DNA of 41,689 nucleotides, from assembly GCA_016879935.1 (NCBI GenBank), contig JAACJQ010000356.1, positions 1 to 41,689 of the forward strand, in the 5' to 3' direction. The notes beneath the pieces were generated by a model. It was not told where the DNA came from, ran no database searches, and saw only the letters and a list, made by a program, of their open reading frames with translations. This stretch comes from Archangiaceae bacterium (lineage in GTDB: Bacteria > Myxococcota > Myxococcia > Myxococcales > Myxococcaceae). Below are positions 19,288 through 27,220 of this stretch, in pieces. Both the position numbers and the translations under genes were made by a program. Position 1 is the first letter of the stretch. The number at the start of each line of letters is the position of its first letter.

Positions 19288-22200
19288 TCAGCCGCGGCGT
19301 CTGCGGAGCAGCCCAACGAGCGCAACGACGGCGAAGAGGAGCTGGCCGTCGACCGACGAGCATCCAGCGCAGCCGCCGCCGTTGCTGGCGCCACCACCGC
19401 CAGCGCCACCAGCCGTCGCGGAGCCACCCGCCGTCGCAGAGCCACCAGCCGTCGCAGAGCCGCCCGCCGTCGCAGAGCCACCAGCCGTCGCAGAGCCACC
19501 AGCCGTCGCAGAGCCACCAGCCGTCGCAGAGCCACCAGCCGTCGCAGAGCCGCCAGCCGTCGCAGAGCCACCAGCCGTCGCAGAGCCGCCAGCCGTCGCA
19601 GAGCCGCCAGCCGTCGCAGAGCCGCCAGCCGTCGCGGAGCCGCCAGCCGTCGCGGAGCCGCCACCGACTCCGCTCGAACCGCCTGCCGACGCCGAGCCAC
19701 CACCAACTCCGCTCGAGCCACCTCCGGCACCGGTGCCGGCGTCACTGCCTGCGTACCCGGCGTCCATCAGCGGCGGCAGGAAGCCACCATCGATTCGCAC
19801 GCCCGCGTCGAAGTACGCCGACGCCGACGTCACCAACACCACGCTCTCGGTCTGCCCGAAATACGCGGGCTCGGTGATGATGAACGTCGTCTGGCCTGCG
19901 TTCAGCGTGACGCCGATGTCGAGGTACTGCATCGGCGTGCAGTTGAGACCACACGTGTTGCTGCGGGTGACGTAGCCATTCGTCTGCACGACGTAGTCGC
20001 CGGACACGGGCGCCGTGAACGACCACACCACGTCGGGGTTGCCGGTGTAGCCACAGGTCGAGCACCCGCCGTCAGTCGTGCAGGTCGAGCCGCCGTCGCC
20101 TCCTCGTGGCAGGTCGTCCATCGCGTCGATCAGCGGCGTGGAGTTCTGCACGCCGAGCTGGAGCGCCTGGGGCAGCGTGCACGAATCGTTCGACGGCGGA
20201 ATCACCTGGTTCACCGACAGCGTGAAGTCGGTGCCGAGCGAGTAGGGCGACTCCACGACGACGAATGAGGGGACTCCCGCCGTGCCCGACATGACGCTCG
20301 ACGTCGACAAACAGCCTCCGTCGCAGCCTGCGCGCGCCCACGAGGTCGTGACCCAGCCTGCATCGGCGATGGCAGTCGCGCGCCACGCCCCGCTTGCAGG
20401 AGGCGTGAGCTGGTAGACGACGTCTGGCCCGCTCCAGAGCCCGCACGAGAAGTCGTCTTGCGCGCCGAGGGTGGTGCCAGAGACGGGCACGCCGACCGAG
20501 ATGGGCAGCGGCGCCGTGCAGCGGTCGTTCGGCGGAGGCACGATGAAGCGCGCGAGCACCTGGCCAGACGTGTACTCGTCGCCGTCGACGATGAGGTACG
20601 CCGTTTGTCCCGCGACGAGGTCGAGCAACATCGGGCCCCACGTCGTCGGCTGGCAGCCCGCGCCACAGGTGCCCACGCTCACCGAGAGCATGCCGGGTGC
20701 AGTGATGAGGTAGCGGCCCGTCGCCGTCGCGGTCAGTGAGAAGACGACGTCGGGGTAGCCGGCCGCGCCACACGTGCCGAGCATCGGCCCCGCGTCGACC
20801 GCACCACCACCGTCACCCGAGAAGGCGCCACCGCCTCCCGCGCCCGGCCCACCCGCCGTCGAGCCACCACCACCGTAGCCACCGCCGTACGCCGAACCGC
20901 CACCGTACGCGCTGCCACCACCGAAGCCGCCGGTGTTCACCCCGCCGTCAGGGAAGATGTCGTCGAGCGCGCCCAGCATCGCGACCGGAGCTCCGACGCC
21001 CAGGGTCAGCGCCTGAGGCGCCGAGCAGTTGTCGTTGGCGGGTGCCATCACCTGGTTCACCACGAATTGAAACGGCGCTTCGTCCCAGTTGCTGACCGAC
21101 AGCTTCACCGTCTCGCCAGCGTTCGCGCGAATCACGAGTCGGCTCTGGCAGAGGCTGTACGTGCCGCCGTCAGCGGGGCAGCCCCGCGTCGCTCCGAAGA
21201 TGACGCCGCCATCACCCGTCGTCGAGTTGACCGAGTACACACCCGCGCTGTTGGCGGTGAAGGTGTAGAAGACCTCTCCCGAGCCGTACGAGCAGAGGAA
21301 GTCAGGCGCTGCGCCGGCCGTCACGCCGTTCACCGGCACCCCGAAGGTGACCGGGAGCGCGTTCACGCAGAGGTCGTTCGACGGCACGGTGATGGGGTCG
21401 ACGCGGAGCGTGCCTGACTGGGCCACGTCTTCGATGGTGACGATGACCGGTGCACCAGCCGCGAGGTCGAGGTCGACGCGCCCATACCGGTTCGACGCCA
21501 GACACGCGCCAGCACACGAGCCCTGGCTCACGCTCATGCTGAACGACGAGGCGAAGCGGTAGCGCCCCGTGGCGGTCGGCGTGAAGCGGTAGTGCACGTC
21601 ACCCAGCCCCGCGGTGCCGCAGAACACGACGCCACCATCGGTGCCGGCGGCCGGCAGGTCGTCGACGGAGTTGGTGGTGTCGACCGCGACCGGCGTTCCC
21701 ACCGTGAGCACCGTCGGCGTGCTGCACTGGTCGTTCACCGGCGGCGTCACCGGCTGCGCGACGACCTGAAACGACCCCTCGCTCCACGAGGCGACCGCGA
21801 GTGAAGCGCTGCCACCCGGCGGCAACCGGAACGTCGTGCCCGAGGACCACCACGAGTACTGGCACACGAACGAGGTCGAGTCGCAGGTCGGAGCACCGGG
21901 CGTCACGACGAAGCCGCCCGCGTCCGAGCTTCCGTTCGCCGACGCCGTCGCGCGGAAGGTGCCACCGTCGGTCGAGGTCACCCGATAGAAGACGTCGGGG
22001 CCCTGGCCGCACGCCGTGTTCACGAGCGCACCGACCGTCGTCCCCACCACGGGCACGCCGATGGGCAGCGTCGTCGCGCCCGGGCAGAGGTCGTTCGACG
22101 GCACCACGAGCTGCTGCACTGAGAACGTCTGAACGCCGCTGCCGTCGAGCACCAGGAAGCTCGTCACGCCCGCCGTGAGGTCGAGGGTCAGCGCGCCGTA

Positions 22201-23001
22201 GTTCGACTGGCAGTTCGTGCCGCAGGTGCCGATGGAGTGTGAAATCGACCCGCCGCTCAGCTCGAAGCGATAGCGGCCGGTGACCGACGGCGTGAACGAA
22301 TAGACGAGGTCGGCCGCTCCACTGGAGCCGCAGCCGGAGTAGCCGCCGTCGGTGCCGCCGTCGCCGCCACCGCTGCCGCCGAACGTGTCGTCGAAGGCGC
22401 TGGTGAAGTCGACCGTGCGGGTGCCGACGGTGATGGGCGCGGGTGCTGAACACGTCTCGTTCGTGGCGGGCGTGAAGCTGCGCACCTCGAACGTGAACGG
22501 CGTCGGGGTGATGGTGTCGACGACGAGGAAGTGGCTGGTGCCGGCGTTCGCGCGGAAGACCAAGGTGCTGTCGGGCCAGGTGTCACAGGTGGTCGAGACG
22601 AAGCCGCCGTCAGCGAGCCCGCCGGCGTCGATGCCCGAGCACCCCGTGCGCAGCCGGTACACGCTGGGCTGGTAGCCCGAGTACCCCGCGTCGGATGACA
22701 CGGGCCCGGCGTCGACGAAGACGGCCGCGCGATACGCACCCGTCGAAGGTGCCGTGAACGAGTAGACGACGTCGGGGCCCCAGGTGCCGTACCAGCAGTC
22801 GAAGTCGTTGCTGGCCTCGACGGTGGTGCCCGTCACCACGGTGTTCGCCGGCACGGCGATGACACCACTGCAGCGGTCGTTGGCTGGGGCCAGCGCGGCG
22901 CTCTGTCGCTGAACGGGCTCGGGCGTCGCGGCGGGCGGCTCCATCGCGCACGAGCCGGCGAGGAGGACGACACAACAAGACAGCGCATAGAGGCGGTTCA
23001 T
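19288..23001 (-). CDS. Giant secreted surface protein (1237 aa): signal peptide, about 8 tandem PPC-like (pre-peptidase C-terminal-type) beta-sandwich modules each beginning P-x-N-D-x-C, a (GGSATA)n low-complexity stalk and a C-terminal MYXO-CTERM sorting signal
   Basis: N-terminus MNRLYALSCCVVLLAGSCA. Repeated module starts: PANDRCSG, ATNETCSAP, PSNDLCPGA, PVNDQCSTP, PSNDLCVNA, PANDNCSAP, PPNDRCTAP, PSNDSCTLP. C-terminus GGGCAGCSSVDGQLLFAVVALVGLLRRRRG (Cys-rich + hydrophobic + Arg cluster = MYXO-CTERM). Confidence 0.8.
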   Translation of the reverse strand: MNRLYALSCCVVLLAGSCAMEPPAATPEPVQRQSAALAPANDRCSGVIAVPANTVVTGTTVEASNDFDCWYGTWGPDVVYSFTAPSTGAYRAAVFVDAGPVSSDAGYSGYQPSVYRLRTGCSGIDAGGLADGGFVSTTCDTWPDSTLVFRANAGTSHFLVVDTITPTPFTFEVRSFTPATNETCSAPAPITVGTRTVDFTSAFDDTFGGSGGGDGGTDGGYSGCGSSGAADLVYSFTPSVTGRYRFELSGGSISHSIGTCGTNCQSNYGALTLDLTAGVTSFLVLDGSGVQTFSVQQLVVPSNDLCPGATTLPIGVPVVGTTVGALVNTACGQGPDVFYRVTSTDGGTFRATASANGSSDAGGFVVTPGAPTCDSTSFVCQYSWWSSGTTFRLPPGGSASLAVASWSEGSFQVVAQPVTPPVNDQCSTPTVLTVGTPVAVDTTNSVDDLPAAGTDGGVVFCGTAGLGDVHYRFTPTATGRYRFASSFSMSVSQGSCAGACLASNRYGRVDLDLAAGAPVIVTIEDVAQSGTLRVDPITVPSNDLCVNALPVTFGVPVNGVTAGAAPDFLCSYGSGEVFYTFTANSAGVYSVNSTTGDGGVIFGATRGCPADGGTYSLCQSRLVIRANAGETVKLSVSNWDEAPFQFVVNQVMAPANDNCSAPQALTLGVGAPVAMLGALDDIFPDGGVNTGGFGGGSAYGGGSAYGGGYGGGGSTAGGPGAGGGGAFSGDGGGAVDAGPMLGTCGAAGYPDVVFSLTATATGRYLITAPGMLSVSVGTCGAGCQPTTWGPMLLDLVAGQTAYLIVDGDEYTSGQVLARFIVPPPNDRCTAPLPISVGVPVSGTTLGAQDDFSCGLWSGPDVVYQLTPPASGAWRATAIADAGWVTTSWARAGCDGGCLSTSSVMSGTAGVPSFVVVESPYSLGTDFTLSVNQVIPPSNDSCTLPQALQLGVQNSTPLIDAMDDLPRGGDGGSTCTTDGGCSTCGYTGNPDVVWSFTAPVSGDYVVQTNGYVTRSNTCGLNCTPMQYLDIGVTLNAGQTTFIITEPAYFGQTESVVLVTSASAYFDAGVRIDGGFLPPLMDAGYAGSDAGTGAGGGSSGVGGGSASAGGSSGVGGGSATAGGSATAGGSATAGGSATAGGSATAGGSATAGGSATAGGSATAGGSATAGGSATAGGSATAGGSATAGGSATAGGSATAGGAGGGGASNGGGCAGCSSVDGQLLFAVVALVGLLRRRRG
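19405..19660. repeat. 18-bp tandem repeat (gcc[a/g]ccagccgtcgc[a/g]gagcc), about 14 copies, in-frame within the giant protein gene; encodes GGSATA repeats
   Basis: Directly visible near-perfect periodicity across 19405-19660. Translated minus strand gives GGSATAGGSATAGG... Confidence 0.85.
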
Positions 23002-24249: not shown

Positions 24250-25647
24250 TCAGGTCGAGGGAACGGCCGACTTCCCCGTCTTGCGGAAGTGGGCTTCGAG
24301 CACGGCGACCGCACAGCTCGCCAGCCGCGTGGAGTCGTCGTCGGCCCGGCTCGTCAACATGATGGGCACCTGCGCGCCGACGACGAGCCCGGGGCCTTCG
24401 GCGTGCGCGACGAACGCGAGCTCTTTGGCGAGCATGTTGCCCGACTCGATGTTCGGCACCATGAGCACGTTCGCGCGGCCGGCCACGAGCGAGGTGATGC
24501 CCTTCGTGCGCGCGGCCTTGAGCGAGAGCGCGTTGTCCATCGCGAGCGGGCCGTCGACGATGCCGCCGGTGATTTGCCCGCGCTCGGCCATCTTCGAGAG
24601 AATCGCCGCGTCGAGCGTCGAGGGCATGGCGGGGTTCACCACCTCGACGGCCGAGAGCACGCCCACCTTGGGCTGCGCGTAGCCCAGCGCCTGCGCGAGG
24701 AAGATGGCGTTCTGCACGATGTCGACCTTCTCCTCGAGCGTAGGCGCGATGTTGATGGCGGCGTCGGTGACGAGCAGCAGCTCGCTCAGGCCCGGCACGT
24801 CCATCACGAAGACGTGGCTGATGCGGCGCACGCCGCGCAGGCCGCCCTCCTTCTTCACCACGGGCTTGAGCAGCTCGTCGGTGTGCAGCTTGCCCTTCAT
24901 GAGCGCCTGCACGCTGCCCTGGTTCGCGAGGGCCACGGCCTTCTCGGCCGCGGGAATCGCGCCGCTGGCTTCGATGATCTCGAGCCCGTCGAGTGACGCG
25001 TTGAGCCCCTTCGCGACCGCGCGAATCTTCTCGACGTTGCCGATGAGAATCGGGCGAATGAGCTCGTGCTTGAAGCCGAGCAGCGCGCCCGCGAGCGACG
25101 CGTCGTCTTCGGGGCAGACCACGGCGGTGGCGAGCGGCTCGAGCGGCTCACACGCCTTCATCAGGCGCTCGATGTGCTGGTGGCGCACGACGGTGAGCGA
25201 AGGCAGTTCGTCGTCGGGCACCTCGATGCGCTCGGTCGGCGCGAGCACCTCGGCTTCTCCTTCGGCGATGACACGGCCGTCGGCGGTCTTCACCTCGGTG
25301 TCGAAGGTGACGCGCGCGTCGCCGAGCTTTCGTTTCACCGTCACCGTCGCGGTCACCGTGTCACCGATGCGCGCGCGCTCGGGGAAGCGGAAGGTCTGCG
25401 CGATGTAGCGCGTGCCCGGCCCGGGGAGCAGGTTGCCGAGCACCGCCGAGACCTGTGCTCCGGCCCAGAGCGGCGGCGCGACCGCGTCACTCTTGCCGTC
25501 GCCGTTCGGGTCGAACGAGGGCAGCACCAGCGGGTTCAGGTTGCCGCTCGCGTGCGCGAAGACCCAGAGGTCGTTTGCGGTGACTTCGCGGCGAATCGAC
25601 GCCTTCGCGCCGACAACGAGTTCGTCGTACGTGGTGTTTCGAGCCAT
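24250..25647 (-). CDS. pta: Bifunctional MaoC-like (hotdog) dehydratase / phosphate acetyl(butyryl)transferase fusion (465 aa)
   Basis: N-terminal 140 aa is a MaoC/hotdog fold (NPLVLPSFD...GTRYIAQTFRFPERARIGDTV). The C-terminal 320 aa is a PTA_PTB domain (GKLHTDELLKPVV...SGNMLAKELAFVAHAEGPGLVVGAQVPIMLTSRADDDSTRL). Immediately upstream of ackA on the same strand. Confidence 0.85.
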   Translation of the reverse strand: MARNTTYDELVVGAKASIRREVTANDLWVFAHASGNLNPLVLPSFDPNGDGKSDAVAPPLWAGAQVSAVLGNLLPGPGTRYIAQTFRFPERARIGDTVTATVTVKRKLGDARVTFDTEVKTADGRVIAEGEAEVLAPTERIEVPDDELPSLTVVRHQHIERLMKACEPLEPLATAVVCPEDDASLAGALLGFKHELIRPILIGNVEKIRAVAKGLNASLDGLEIIEASGAIPAAEKAVALANQGSVQALMKGKLHTDELLKPVVKKEGGLRGVRRISHVFVMDVPGLSELLLVTDAAINIAPTLEEKVDIVQNAIFLAQALGYAQPKVGVLSAVEVVNPAMPSTLDAAILSKMAERGQITGGIVDGPLAMDNALSLKAARTKGITSLVAGRANVLMVPNIESGNMLAKELAFVAHAEGPGLVVGAQVPIMLTSRADDDSTRLASCAVAVLEAHFRKTGKSAVPST

Positions 25648-25715
25648 GCACGCAGGCTACGCGCAGCCGACCGCGTCGCTGAGTGACTTTGGTTGAAGCG
25701 AGAATCAGATCAGCT

Positions 25716-25901
25716 GATCAACCCAGCGAGCGAGGCGGTCGCGAGGCCGAAGCCGTGAAGCGCGTCACCTGTGCGGCCGAGTCGAGCGCGACGAGCGAGC
25801 GGATCAACCCAGCGAGCGAGGCGGTCGCGAGGCCGAAGTGGTGAAGCGCGTCACCTGTGCGGCCGAGTCGAGCGCGACGAGCGAGCGGAACAACCCAGCT
25901 C
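25716..25901. repeat. 86-bp tandem direct repeat, 2 full copies (25716-25801, 25802-25887; 2 mismatches) plus a 14-bp partial third copy that runs into the stop of the PEGA gene
   Basis: Direct reading: gatcaacccagcgagcgaggcggtcgcgaggccgaag[cc/tg]gtgaagcgcgtcacctgtgcggccgagtcgagcgcgacgagcgagcg, then again. It lies between the PEGA gene stop (25900) and the pta start (25647). Confidence 0.9.
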
Positions 25902-27036
25902 AGAACTCCAACGACCAGACGCTGCCGGCGCCGTTCGGCGTCACCCACGCCGACGCCTTCGGCCCGCGGTACGACTGATACTTGTTCGGGTCTTCCCCGA
26001 TGATGAAGAGCGCGGTCGCGGCGATGGCCGACGCGAGGCCGACACCGCCACCGACGTACGACACGGCGAGCTGGGTGTTGATGGTGTTTCGCAGCGCTTC
26101 GGCCTCGGAGCGAACCGACTCGTCGCCTGCGGCCAGCGTGTCGCGCAGCGAGATGAACGAGCGCTCCGTGCCCGGCCCGTAGTTGTACTGCGCCTGGCCC
26201 TGCATGATGGCGAAGGTGGCGATGCCGGCGACCGCGACGCCGGTGGCGATGAACGCTCCGATGCGCAGGCCCCACTGCTTCTTCTCGTAGCCCTCGATGA
26301 AGTCGGGGCTGGGCATGAGCCGCACCGCTTCTTCCGTCACCTGGTCAGGCGCGATGCGCACCTGCTTCTGCACCGAGGTGAAGCCCTCTTTCTCGATGCG
26401 CAGCACGTGGGGCCCGCCGGGCACCGAGAGGCGCTGCAGCATGGGCGTGGTGCCGAGCTGCGTGCCGTCGACCTTCACCGCCGAGCCGTCCTCCGACGCG
26501 ATGACGACGAGGAAGCCCTGACGCCCGTTCAGCAGCGGCGCGATGAGGGCCGCCACGTTCTCCTGCAGCTTCGAGACGAGGTCGGCTTCGCTGCTGCCCT
26601 TCACCTCGCGCGAGCTCACCCGCTTGCCCGACTTCACCTCGACGATGGCGAGGTCGAGCGTGAGGCCCGTGGTCGCCTTCTTCGCGTCGGTCAGGCGCGA
26701 GACCCGGCCGTTGAGCAGAAAGTCGACGCCGAGCTGGCCGGCGATGTTCGACGTGCACGAGTCGTCGTTGCAGCCCAGCAGCTGACGCTGACGGTCGAGC
26801 GAGAGCAGGGCGCGCACCTGATCAGACGTCGTCACCGTGAACATGCCCGTGCGGTCGATCTCGGTCGCAACCGAACCCGCCAGCATCGCCGCGATGGGCT
26901 CGTTGCCCGCCGTCGTCTGGAAGTCGGGCACGGCCATCTTCGGGTTGGTGTTGCCGTCGGCCACCCGCGCCTGGTCGGCGATGGTCTTGTCGGGCGTTTG
27001 CGTCAGCAACGTGGCGAGCGTGATGGCGAGCAACAT
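25900..27036 (-). CDS. PEGA-domain envelope protein (378 aa): N-terminal signal/anchor, periplasmic domain, PEGA domain, C-terminal TM segment
   Basis: PEGA motif VKVDGTQLGTTPMLQRLSVPGGPHVLRIEKEGF. C-terminal hydrophobic helix LRIGAFIATGVAVAGIATFAIM. GGGGGAG RBS 6 nt upstream of the ATG. Confidence 0.65.
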   Translation of the reverse strand: MLLAITLATLLTQTPDKTIADQARVADGNTNPKMAVPDFQTTAGNEPIAAMLAGSVATEIDRTGMFTVTTSDQVRALLSLDRQRQLLGCNDDSCTSNIAGQLGVDFLLNGRVSRLTDAKKATTGLTLDLAIVEVKSGKRVSSREVKGSSEADLVSKLQENVAALIAPLLNGRQGFLVVIASEDGSAVKVDGTQLGTTPMLQRLSVPGGPHVLRIEKEGFTSVQKQVRIAPDQVTEEAVRLMPSPDFIEGYEKKQWGLRIGAFIATGVAVAGIATFAIMQGQAQYNYGPGTERSFISLRDTLAAGDESVRSEAEALRNTINTQLAVSYVGGGVGLASAIAATALFIIGEDPNKYQSYRGPKASAWVTPNGAGSVWSLEF

Positions 27037-27105
27037 CGGTGGACTCCCCCGTGGAAAAGACGAGGCAGCCTAACCGAACCCGTCTGGGCTGCAGCAACGT
27101 TCGGC

Positions 27106-27118
27106 GATCAACCCAGCG
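27106..27118 (+). promoter_or_regulatory. Third occurrence of the 13-mer GATCAACCCAGCG (core of the 86-bp repeat) in the divergent promoter region between the PEGA gene and hoxF; candidate operator
   Basis: Exact 13/13 match to the first 13 nt of both 86-bp repeat copies (25716, 25802). Located 40-100 nt upstream of the hoxF start candidates. Confidence 0.3.
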
Positions 27119-27220
27119 CACGGAACCCATGTCTGGCAGCCGGGAACGCAACGCTTGCGCTCGGCGGCGGGCCAGGGGCGTGACAGGCGGAGCGGCGCGA
27201 GGCGTGCAACAGGTCGTCGG

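Follow-up and report, generated by a model that had tools for sequence, protein, structure and literature searches.

The closest described analogue of the element reported here is the R-domain of ClfA and of Staphylococcus lugdunensis Fbl, a known flexible stalk that projects a binding domain and is encoded by 18-bp in-frame hexapeptide units directly ahead of a C-terminal sorting signal. In Fbl, strains have between 9 and 52 copies of the R-domain unit; the polymorphism is for the most part synonymous and has been attributed to slipped-strand mispairing, yet the domain was stable over 30 subcultures (PMC6533592). We analysed a comparable array in a 41,689-nucleotide stretch of DNA from an Archangiaceae bacterium (Myxococcota; assembly GCA_016879935.1, contig JAACJQ010000356.1), hereafter the window, where 14 units of 18 bp encode consecutive GGSATA hexapeptides near the C terminus of a predicted surface protein of 1,237 residues. 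The array is probably a coding repeat that is turning over and that forms a disordered tether between the ectodomain and a MYXO-CTERM sorting signal. The likeness to ClfA and Fbl lies in unit length, frame and placement. Their peptide, SDSDSA/SD, is acidic and glycosylated, whereas GGSATA is uncharged and shares no sequence homology with it; their anchor is LPXTG, attached by sortase to Gram-positive peptidoglycan, whereas the tail found here points to MYXO-CTERM, a myxosortase and a lipid in the outer membrane of a diderm cell. Variation in ClfA and Fbl has been seen between strains, while the comparison available here is at the level of the family. With no Asp in the unit and no LPXTG motif, the resemblance is one of analogy, not of membership in the Ser-Asp (SD) repeat proteins.

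Two further systems bear on this locus. The MYXO-CTERM tag combines a Cys motif (generically GCGC) with a transmembrane helix that is followed by a cluster of Arg, and is associated with lipidation, cleavage by the myxosortase MrtX and surface display through the type II secretion system (PMC11980579). Myxococcus xanthus TraA (PMC11980579; PMC3325183), also from the Myxococcota, carries the same tripartite C-terminal tag, a likeness drawn from the description of the tag. For its part, the protein analysed here has eight PPC-like modules, a probable N-terminal lipobox and a GCAGC tag that scores just below the cutoff of the hidden Markov models. Linkers, repeats and low-complexity sequence all go unmentioned in the MYXO-CTERM paper (PMC11980579), and we found no published description of repeat-encoded tethers in MYXO-CTERM proteins. 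In E. coli lipoproteins, linker length, not sequence, counts for trafficking (bioRxiv 10.1101/2021.01.05.425367). The linkers of RcsF, NlpD and Pal are likewise disordered and adjoin the lipidated Cys, which fits the kept presence and unconserved sequence of the linker described below; they also resemble (GGSATA)n tethers that follow the lipobox in five metagenomic lipoproteins. They are, however, N-terminal, much shorter (over 22 residues), not encoded by DNA tandem repeats and served by the Lol pathway, whereas the linker here is C-terminal, 136 residues long, repeat-encoded and presumably linked to type II secretion. The principle of the repeat-encoded stalk is already well known, and no new mechanism is indicated.

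The host gene lies on the minus strand at 19288–23001, with its ATG at 23001 and its stop codon at 19288–19290, and is the longest open reading frame (ORF) of the neighbourhood. At 1,237 residues the product is large, although not the giant protein that a first reading of the sequence alone had announced. The core array occupies 19411–19662 of the minus strand, a small shift from the 19405–19660 originally proposed without mention of the minus strand, and comprises 14 × 18 bp with the unit GGY GGC TCY GCG ACG GCK, corresponding to residues 1114–1197. Translation confirmed the proposed in-frame 18-bp coding repeat of about 14 GGSATA: exactly 14 units follow one another without interruption, all in the frame of the 1,237-residue ORF. 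Tandem Repeats Finder, run on the window, reported 19390–19663 with a period of 18, 15.4 copies, 93% matches and a score of 436, compared with top scores of 38–59 in shuffled windows (n = 20). The consensus 18-mer, allowing up to 3 mismatches, gave 14 in-register matches on the minus strand, with 0.53 expected in the whole window; the total of 16 matches in the window was reached in 0 of 100 shuffles.

Variation within the array is limited to three nucleotide positions, every one a synonymous third-codon position. Two of these had been noted from the sequence alone as an a/g wobble, namely codon 1 (GGC/GGT) and codon 3 (TCC/TCT), both g/a on the plus strand; a third site had been missed, codon 6 (GCT/GCG; a/c on the plus strand), at which units 10 and 12 deviate. 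These sites define five unit haplotypes with an average pairwise identity of 93.5%, and the longest exact internal repeat measures 68 bp. The array has the properties of a coding variable-number tandem repeat, with tandem units in frame, a unit length that is a multiple of three and high similarity at the DNA level. It also stands where a stalk of this kind is placed, between a folded region and a sorting signal.

The array forms the greater part of a low-complexity linker of 136 residues (residues 1075–1210; 19372–19779, minus strand), 92% of which are Gly, Ala, Ser or Thr. It contributes 84 of the 136 residues and stops 13 residues ahead of the Cys motif of the tail. AlphaFold2 assigned a predicted local distance difference test (pLDDT) score of 25–39 to residues 1068–1217, without secondary structure. 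This low score between confidently predicted domains, together with the uncharged, Gly-rich composition, indicates that the linker is a disordered, uncharged Gly-rich tether. We estimate that the 84 repeat residues would contribute at most ~30 nm of contour length.

Downstream of the linker, the protein ends in a MYXO-CTERM-type sorting tail, NGGGCAGCSSVDGQLLFAVVALVGLLRRRRG (residues 1207–1237; 19291–19383, minus strand). The tail opens with the motif GGGCAGCSS (tag GCAGC, with Cys1211 and Cys1214), which aligns with GCGC or GCSGC in homologues, and continues with a hydrophobic segment, LLFAVVALVGLL, forming a helix at residues 1221–1232 and followed by RRRR at 1233–1236. AlphaFold2 predicted the C-terminal helix at 1218–1236 with a pLDDT of 76–82. 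The tail stands at the extreme C terminus of a protein that also has an N-terminal signal peptide, as is fitting for this class of tag, and no second MYXO-CTERM-type tail occurs in the window. When the isolated tail was searched, MYXO-CTERM models were its best or near-best NCBIfam matches; a scan of the full 1,237-residue protein gave no NCBIfam match, the MYXO-CTERM signal being seen only with the tail alone. Among the aligned homologue tails, those of P0001, P0003, P0005 and L005 scored above the cutoffs of both MYXO-CTERM models (31.5 bits for P0003, 28.6 for P0005 and 25.4 for P0001), and that of P0007 above TIGR03382 only. Because all three parts of the tag are present and the aligned homologue tails pass, we treated the tail as a near-threshold, putative MYXO-CTERM variant. 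The earlier proposal of a flexible stalk just ahead of a MYXO-CTERM anchor is thus borne out by a Gly-, Ser-, Ala- and Thr-rich, predicted disordered segment, with this near-threshold caveat on the tail.

At its N terminus, the protein carries a signal peptide (22948–23001, minus strand) with a lipobox-like LLAGSC, recognized by eye with a PROSITE-type rule, in which Cys18 is the putative lipidated residue. Checked by hand, MNRLYALSCCVVLLAGS-C18 matches the looser form of the rule, the pattern considered being [LVI][ASTVI][GAS]C in the first ~35 residues, behind a basic n-region and a hydrophobic h-region. The Cys18 column is invariant in the alignment (eight of eight family members), and the lipoboxes of homologues are canonical (VLGC, LAGC, VVGC and LAAC). 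The protein thus far described apparently has a lipoprotein signal at its N terminus as well as the MYXO-CTERM tag at its C terminus; if both are real, the dual signals would mean lipid anchors at the two ends of the chain.

Between signal peptide and linker, a motif map revealed eight alternating A and B modules (19780–22887, minus strand), each opening with P-x-N-D-x-C. They start at residues 39, 177, 301, 421, 540, 654, 823 and 936, and the last one finishes near residues 1065–1074. AlphaFold2 modelled the last two modules as beta-sandwiches with a pLDDT of 80–95. The best Foldseek match in the PDB was the tandem collagen-binding (PPC-fold) domains s3a–s3b of ColG (5iku; E = 4e-9, probability 1.00), with a TM-score that was low (0.20/0.34) because the query included the disordered tail. 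Structure prediction and structure search together place the modules in a PPC/collagen-binding-like beta-sandwich fold. At the sequence level, GBD_T9SS_assoc (PF23759) reached 22.4 bits in the 1,237-residue protein, under the 27-bit cutoff of Pfam, and PF04151 gave no Pfam match there; precomputed PF23759 matches exist in homologues (faint in the two inspected), and PF04151 matches exist in distant relatives. The ectodomain is likely composed of eight PPC/collagen-binding-like beta-sandwich modules, as predicted from these models. Two of the modules contain repeats of their own. An in-frame 18-bp repeat encoding GGGSAY (2.6 copies; 20877–20923, minus strand) lies in a ~45-residue Gly-rich loop insertion of module B3, and an in-frame 21-bp repeat rich in Gly, Asp and Ser (22328–22381, minus strand) lies in the corresponding loop of module B1. 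The tether is thus not the only site of slippage-type expansion.

The sequence-only reading had taken conservation at the DNA level as a sign of recent amplification. Codon usage upholds amplification, and the array was either amplified recently or has been kept uniform in its DNA. GC content at third codon positions falls from 0.886 in the globular part of the gene to 0.64 in the array. TCT accounts for 11 of 14 Ser codons in the array compared with 3% elsewhere in the gene, and GCT for 12 of 14 Ala codons at codon 6 compared with 7% elsewhere. Moreover, units differ more the farther apart they lie (r = 0.48, permutation p = 0.001). Rare codons copied through the units, few haplotypes and the greatest likeness between neighbours indicate that the array arose by DNA-level amplification of one founder unit, not by peptide convergence. 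An older and degenerate repeat of 39 bp occurs twice, as GGSSGVGGGSASA and GGSSGVGGGSATA, directly upstream of the core array, at 19663–19722 of the minus strand, and its final 18 bp resemble the founder unit of the array; Tandem Repeats Finder detected a second periodicity of 36/39 bp across 19421–19719. Of the 18 positions of the unit, 6 are four-fold degenerate, and each of the three variable sites is one of these 6 (calculated chance ~0.025); this synonymous-only variation hints at some constraint on the peptide. Hairpin-promoted instability was ruled out, as a single strand of the array folds worse than shuffled sequences (z = +5.7); in the absence of hairpin potential, plain misalignment is the likely mechanism.

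Seven homologues share the architecture of the protein, at 33–43% identity, all of them from metagenome-assembled genomes (MAGs) of uncultured Myxococcota. A genome scan gave only homologues of up to 43% identity, all in MAGs, and no relative turned up when metagenomes were scanned for peptide patterns of the 1,237-residue protein. Since repeat words might have displaced true homologues among the 8,000 scored candidates, a second protein search used the globular part alone; it recovered the same family. HMMER, run exhaustively against 1.84 billion representatives, also gave this family and yielded no closer full-length relative; it added only a near-identical fragment of 168 residues, which comes from a contig of ~1× coverage and is of no use for the array, and a 910-residue protein, P0019.

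Every homologue examined that has a complete C terminus carries a tandem DNA array at the same site, and the units all differ, with periods of 12–45 bp plus units of 57 and 69 bp. The linker unit is GGGAV (15 bp) in P0002, GGSAAGGSAGGTATA (45 bp) in P0001, GGAAA (15 bp) in P0003 and GGSTA (15 bp) in P0007; L005 has a 30-bp unit, and L006 has GGF-type units of 12, 57 and 69 bp. In P0019, ~30 tandem heptads, DGGFPNY/DAGFPTW, replace the Gly/Ala/Ser/Thr linker before the MYXO-CTERM tail; they have apparently grown from a conserved 'FDGG..DGGF' motif that closes the last module. The homologue linkers span ~70–150 residues. P0003 and P0005 are 85% identical across the globular part, yet their linkers are set apart by two clean gaps that keep the frame, one of 153 nt within the 15-bp array and one of 15 nt, a difference of about ten 15-bp units; GGAAA is counted 12 times in P0003 and 3 times in P0005. 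Homogenization between paralogues was ruled out in this family, as pairs from the same MAG (L001/L007 and L004/L006) differ in unit. On these sequence comparisons, the presence, composition and minimum length of the tether appear to be conserved, while its sequence, unit and copy number seem to turn over quickly. Variation in stalk length, as foreseen from the sequence alone, holds for the family level only, in the form of different arrays at one site and the 12 versus 3 units of P0003 and P0005; a length-variable tether at this level probably exists and receives indirect support only.

We propose the following sequence of events. One 18-bp founder, the tail of the older 39-bp repeat, would have been duplicated repeatedly by replication slippage or unequal recombination, and the array would continue to turn over. 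By extension from the MYXO-CTERM system (PMC11980579), the Cys that follows the tether may be lipidated, MrtX may cut off the helix and the type II secretion system may deliver the protein onto the surface of the cell, and lipid would hold it there. The length of the tether would then set the reach of the binding modules from the outer membrane. By analogy with the N-terminal disordered linkers of E. coli lipoproteins, the tether is possibly also required for export. Selection seems to bear on the composition of the tether and its minimum length (at least ~70 residues in every relative) and to leave the exact sequence and the number of copies free, and a change in copy number would alter the length of the tether only, with no shut-off of the gene.

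Several points weigh against this proposal. The low pLDDT of the linker rests on an alignment of 6 sequences and hints at disorder without proving it, and the isolated tail falls under the NCBIfam cutoffs, with 18.6 bits against 20 for TIGR03901 and 14.2 against 15.85 for TIGR03382. The difference in length between P0003 and P0005 comes from short-read MAG assemblies, which are able to collapse repeats. Three homologous contigs stop in or beside the linker, L003 and L006 inside the repeat and L002 just short of it, at the last module. No synteny links the window with the homologous loci, and the homologues may therefore be paralogues, not orthologues. Finally, no sibling strain spans the array in the collections searched; the only near-identical DNA is L019 (ENA ERZ724557), a 691-bp contig of the same species with ~1× coverage, which matches 562 bp of the gene's 5′ end with 99.3% identity.

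The three broken contigs also speak for the alternative that the array is real but that its 14 copies and the order of their variants are a product of assembly, through collapse or mis-joining. Tandem repeats are a recognized source of assembly error (PMC6868369), and assemblers evidently break at these linkers; contig ends at such arrays mean that many database copies are likely truncated and devoid of a sorting signal. The array analysed here is resolvable by ordinary reads: once longer than 68 bp, reads or k-mers can follow the five unit haplotypes along one path only, and the contig crosses the whole array with unique sequence on either side. We therefore regard an assembly artefact in copy number or order as unlikely.

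Nor is the repeat easily read as a modified or structured element, either a mucin-like, O-glycosylated Ser/Thr stalk or a Gly-rich fibre with a role in binding or self-association. One Ser and one Thr per unit would offer 28 potential O-glycosylation sites, the synonymous-only variation suggests that the peptide sequence may be selected, and the GGSATA hexapeptide recurs in other lipoproteins. There is precedent as well: staphylococcal SD repeats are glycosylated by SdgA and SdgB (PMC3794999), and in Haft's survey Ser/Thr-rich low-complexity regions suggest glycosylation in other sorting-signal proteins, with those of PEP-CTERM type suspected (bioRxiv 10.1101/2023.06.07.544157). At the same site, however, homologues have units that lack both Ser and Thr (GGAAA, GGGAV) or differ altogether in character (DGGFPNY), and this diversity implies that neither Ser/Thr nor a specific fold is a conserved need. 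AlphaFold2 gave no structure in the segment, and no glycosyltransferase is evident beside the gene, whose neighbours encode acetate kinase, phosphotransacetylase and an esterase. A modified or structured stalk is in our judgement quite improbable.

The recurrence of the unit can also be viewed across genes. A metagenome scan for two consecutive copies of GGYGGCTCYGCGACGGCK (36 nt) returned five contigs, each encoding a different and otherwise unrelated predicted lipoprotein (L014:395–430, L015:5810–5845, L016:513–548, L017:1204–1275 and L018:101–136), four of them from sample Ga0075163. By Pfam, one of the five has RCC1 repeats, one has a weak F5/8-type-C-like match and three have no match. 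In all five, the units lie within ~100 residues after the lipobox Cys and would form N-terminal (GGSATA)n-type tethers, which include GGSPTA and GGTASA variants. Two distant relatives of the 1,237-residue protein, P0024 and P0029, similarly have Gly-rich repeat linkers after an N-terminal lipobox. Taken together, the C-terminal and N-terminal cases suggest that Gly-rich repeat tethers adjoin whichever end bears the lipid. A bolder extension would be that a 'tether cassette' has been spread or homogenized between genes for lipid-anchored proteins of one Myxococcota lineage, that stalk lengths evolve fast and possibly co-vary, and that the 1,237-residue protein is anchored by lipid at both ends, with the repeat giving slack. 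The search pattern preset the unusual codons, and the shared codon usage of the five lipoproteins is accordingly not independent evidence of common descent. We consider this extension speculative and distinctly unlikely.

A homogeneous tandem repeat within a surface-protein gene is the usual setting of a contingency locus, and the sequence-only reading had raised phase variation. Under this alternative, slipped-strand changes in the repeat would toggle the surface protein on and off, as in the simple-sequence repeats of Neisseria and Haemophilus. The contingency loci of Neisseria, Haemophilus and Campylobacter likewise place slippage-prone repeats in surface-protein genes, but their units are 1–7 bp long and not multiples of three, or are sited in promoters, and so toggle expression, whereas an 18-bp unit alters length only. 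Here one unit equals six codons, the degenerate units on either side likewise keep the frame and any whole-unit change is frame-neutral. The length differences between homologues are multiples of three, and the array lies at the 3′ end of the coding sequence, not at the promoter or start. With neither a frame-shifting unit nor a promoter location, the claim of phase variation fell away, and an on–off switch is very improbable.

That the periodic DNA belongs instead to a plus-strand gene, such as the (PPAVAE)n ORF at 19382–19975, or to a non-coding repeat element has next to no likelihood: several long ORFs do cross the array on both strands, as is usual for DNA of 69% GC, but homologues exist only for the minus-strand 1,237-residue frame (E down to 1e-230), this frame combines high third-position GC with a coherent layout of signal peptide, modules and anchor, Rfam gave no match anywhere in the window, and the array folds worse as a single strand than its shuffled controls. 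We dismissed other ORFs that overlap the repeat, on the plus strand or in alternative frames, as high-GC artefacts.

The window has a GC content of 68–71%, and the neighbouring genes are of housekeeping type (acetate kinase, phosphotransacetylase, esterase and a NuoF-like protein). Given these neighbours and the lack of synteny with the homologous loci, gene context is uninformative on function. No terminator-like site was found downstream of the 1,237-residue gene. Further away, a minus-strand ORF of 716 residues (14411–16561) resembles major vault protein (MVP), with Pfam matches to MVP_shoulder (8e-31) and Vault_3 and a match to MVP chains in the PDB with E = 2e-31 over residues 198–649; bacterial homologues of MVP are known, including in Myxococcota (bioRxiv 10.1101/872010). 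Directly 3′ of its stop codon, at 14325–14383, lies a 17-bp tandem repeat, CGCACTCGCCCGCACGA, with 3.5 copies and 95% matches, which is presumably intergenic, since 17 bp is not divisible by three. A longer repeat of 86 bp (25712–25899; 2.2 copies, 96% identical, Tandem Repeats Finder score 348, no Rfam match) is located between a phosphotransacetylase-like gene (24250–25647, minus strand) and a plus-strand ORF that matches nothing in Pfam (25771–27183).

A repeat-built, length-variable tether has several implications. For annotators, such arrays break or distort short-read assemblies and swamp true homologues in word-based searches, and masking is advised. If variation at the level of strains holds, the array might be used for single-locus typing of this uncultured lineage. 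The locus would also offer a natural system for the effects of tether length on the reach or export of a MYXO-CTERM protein. More broadly, surface proteins of Myxococcota may place a long low-complexity tether beside the lipid anchor, made and resized by repeat turnover, a design that parallels, with another anchoring chemistry, the stalks built of SD repeats in Gram-positive adhesins.

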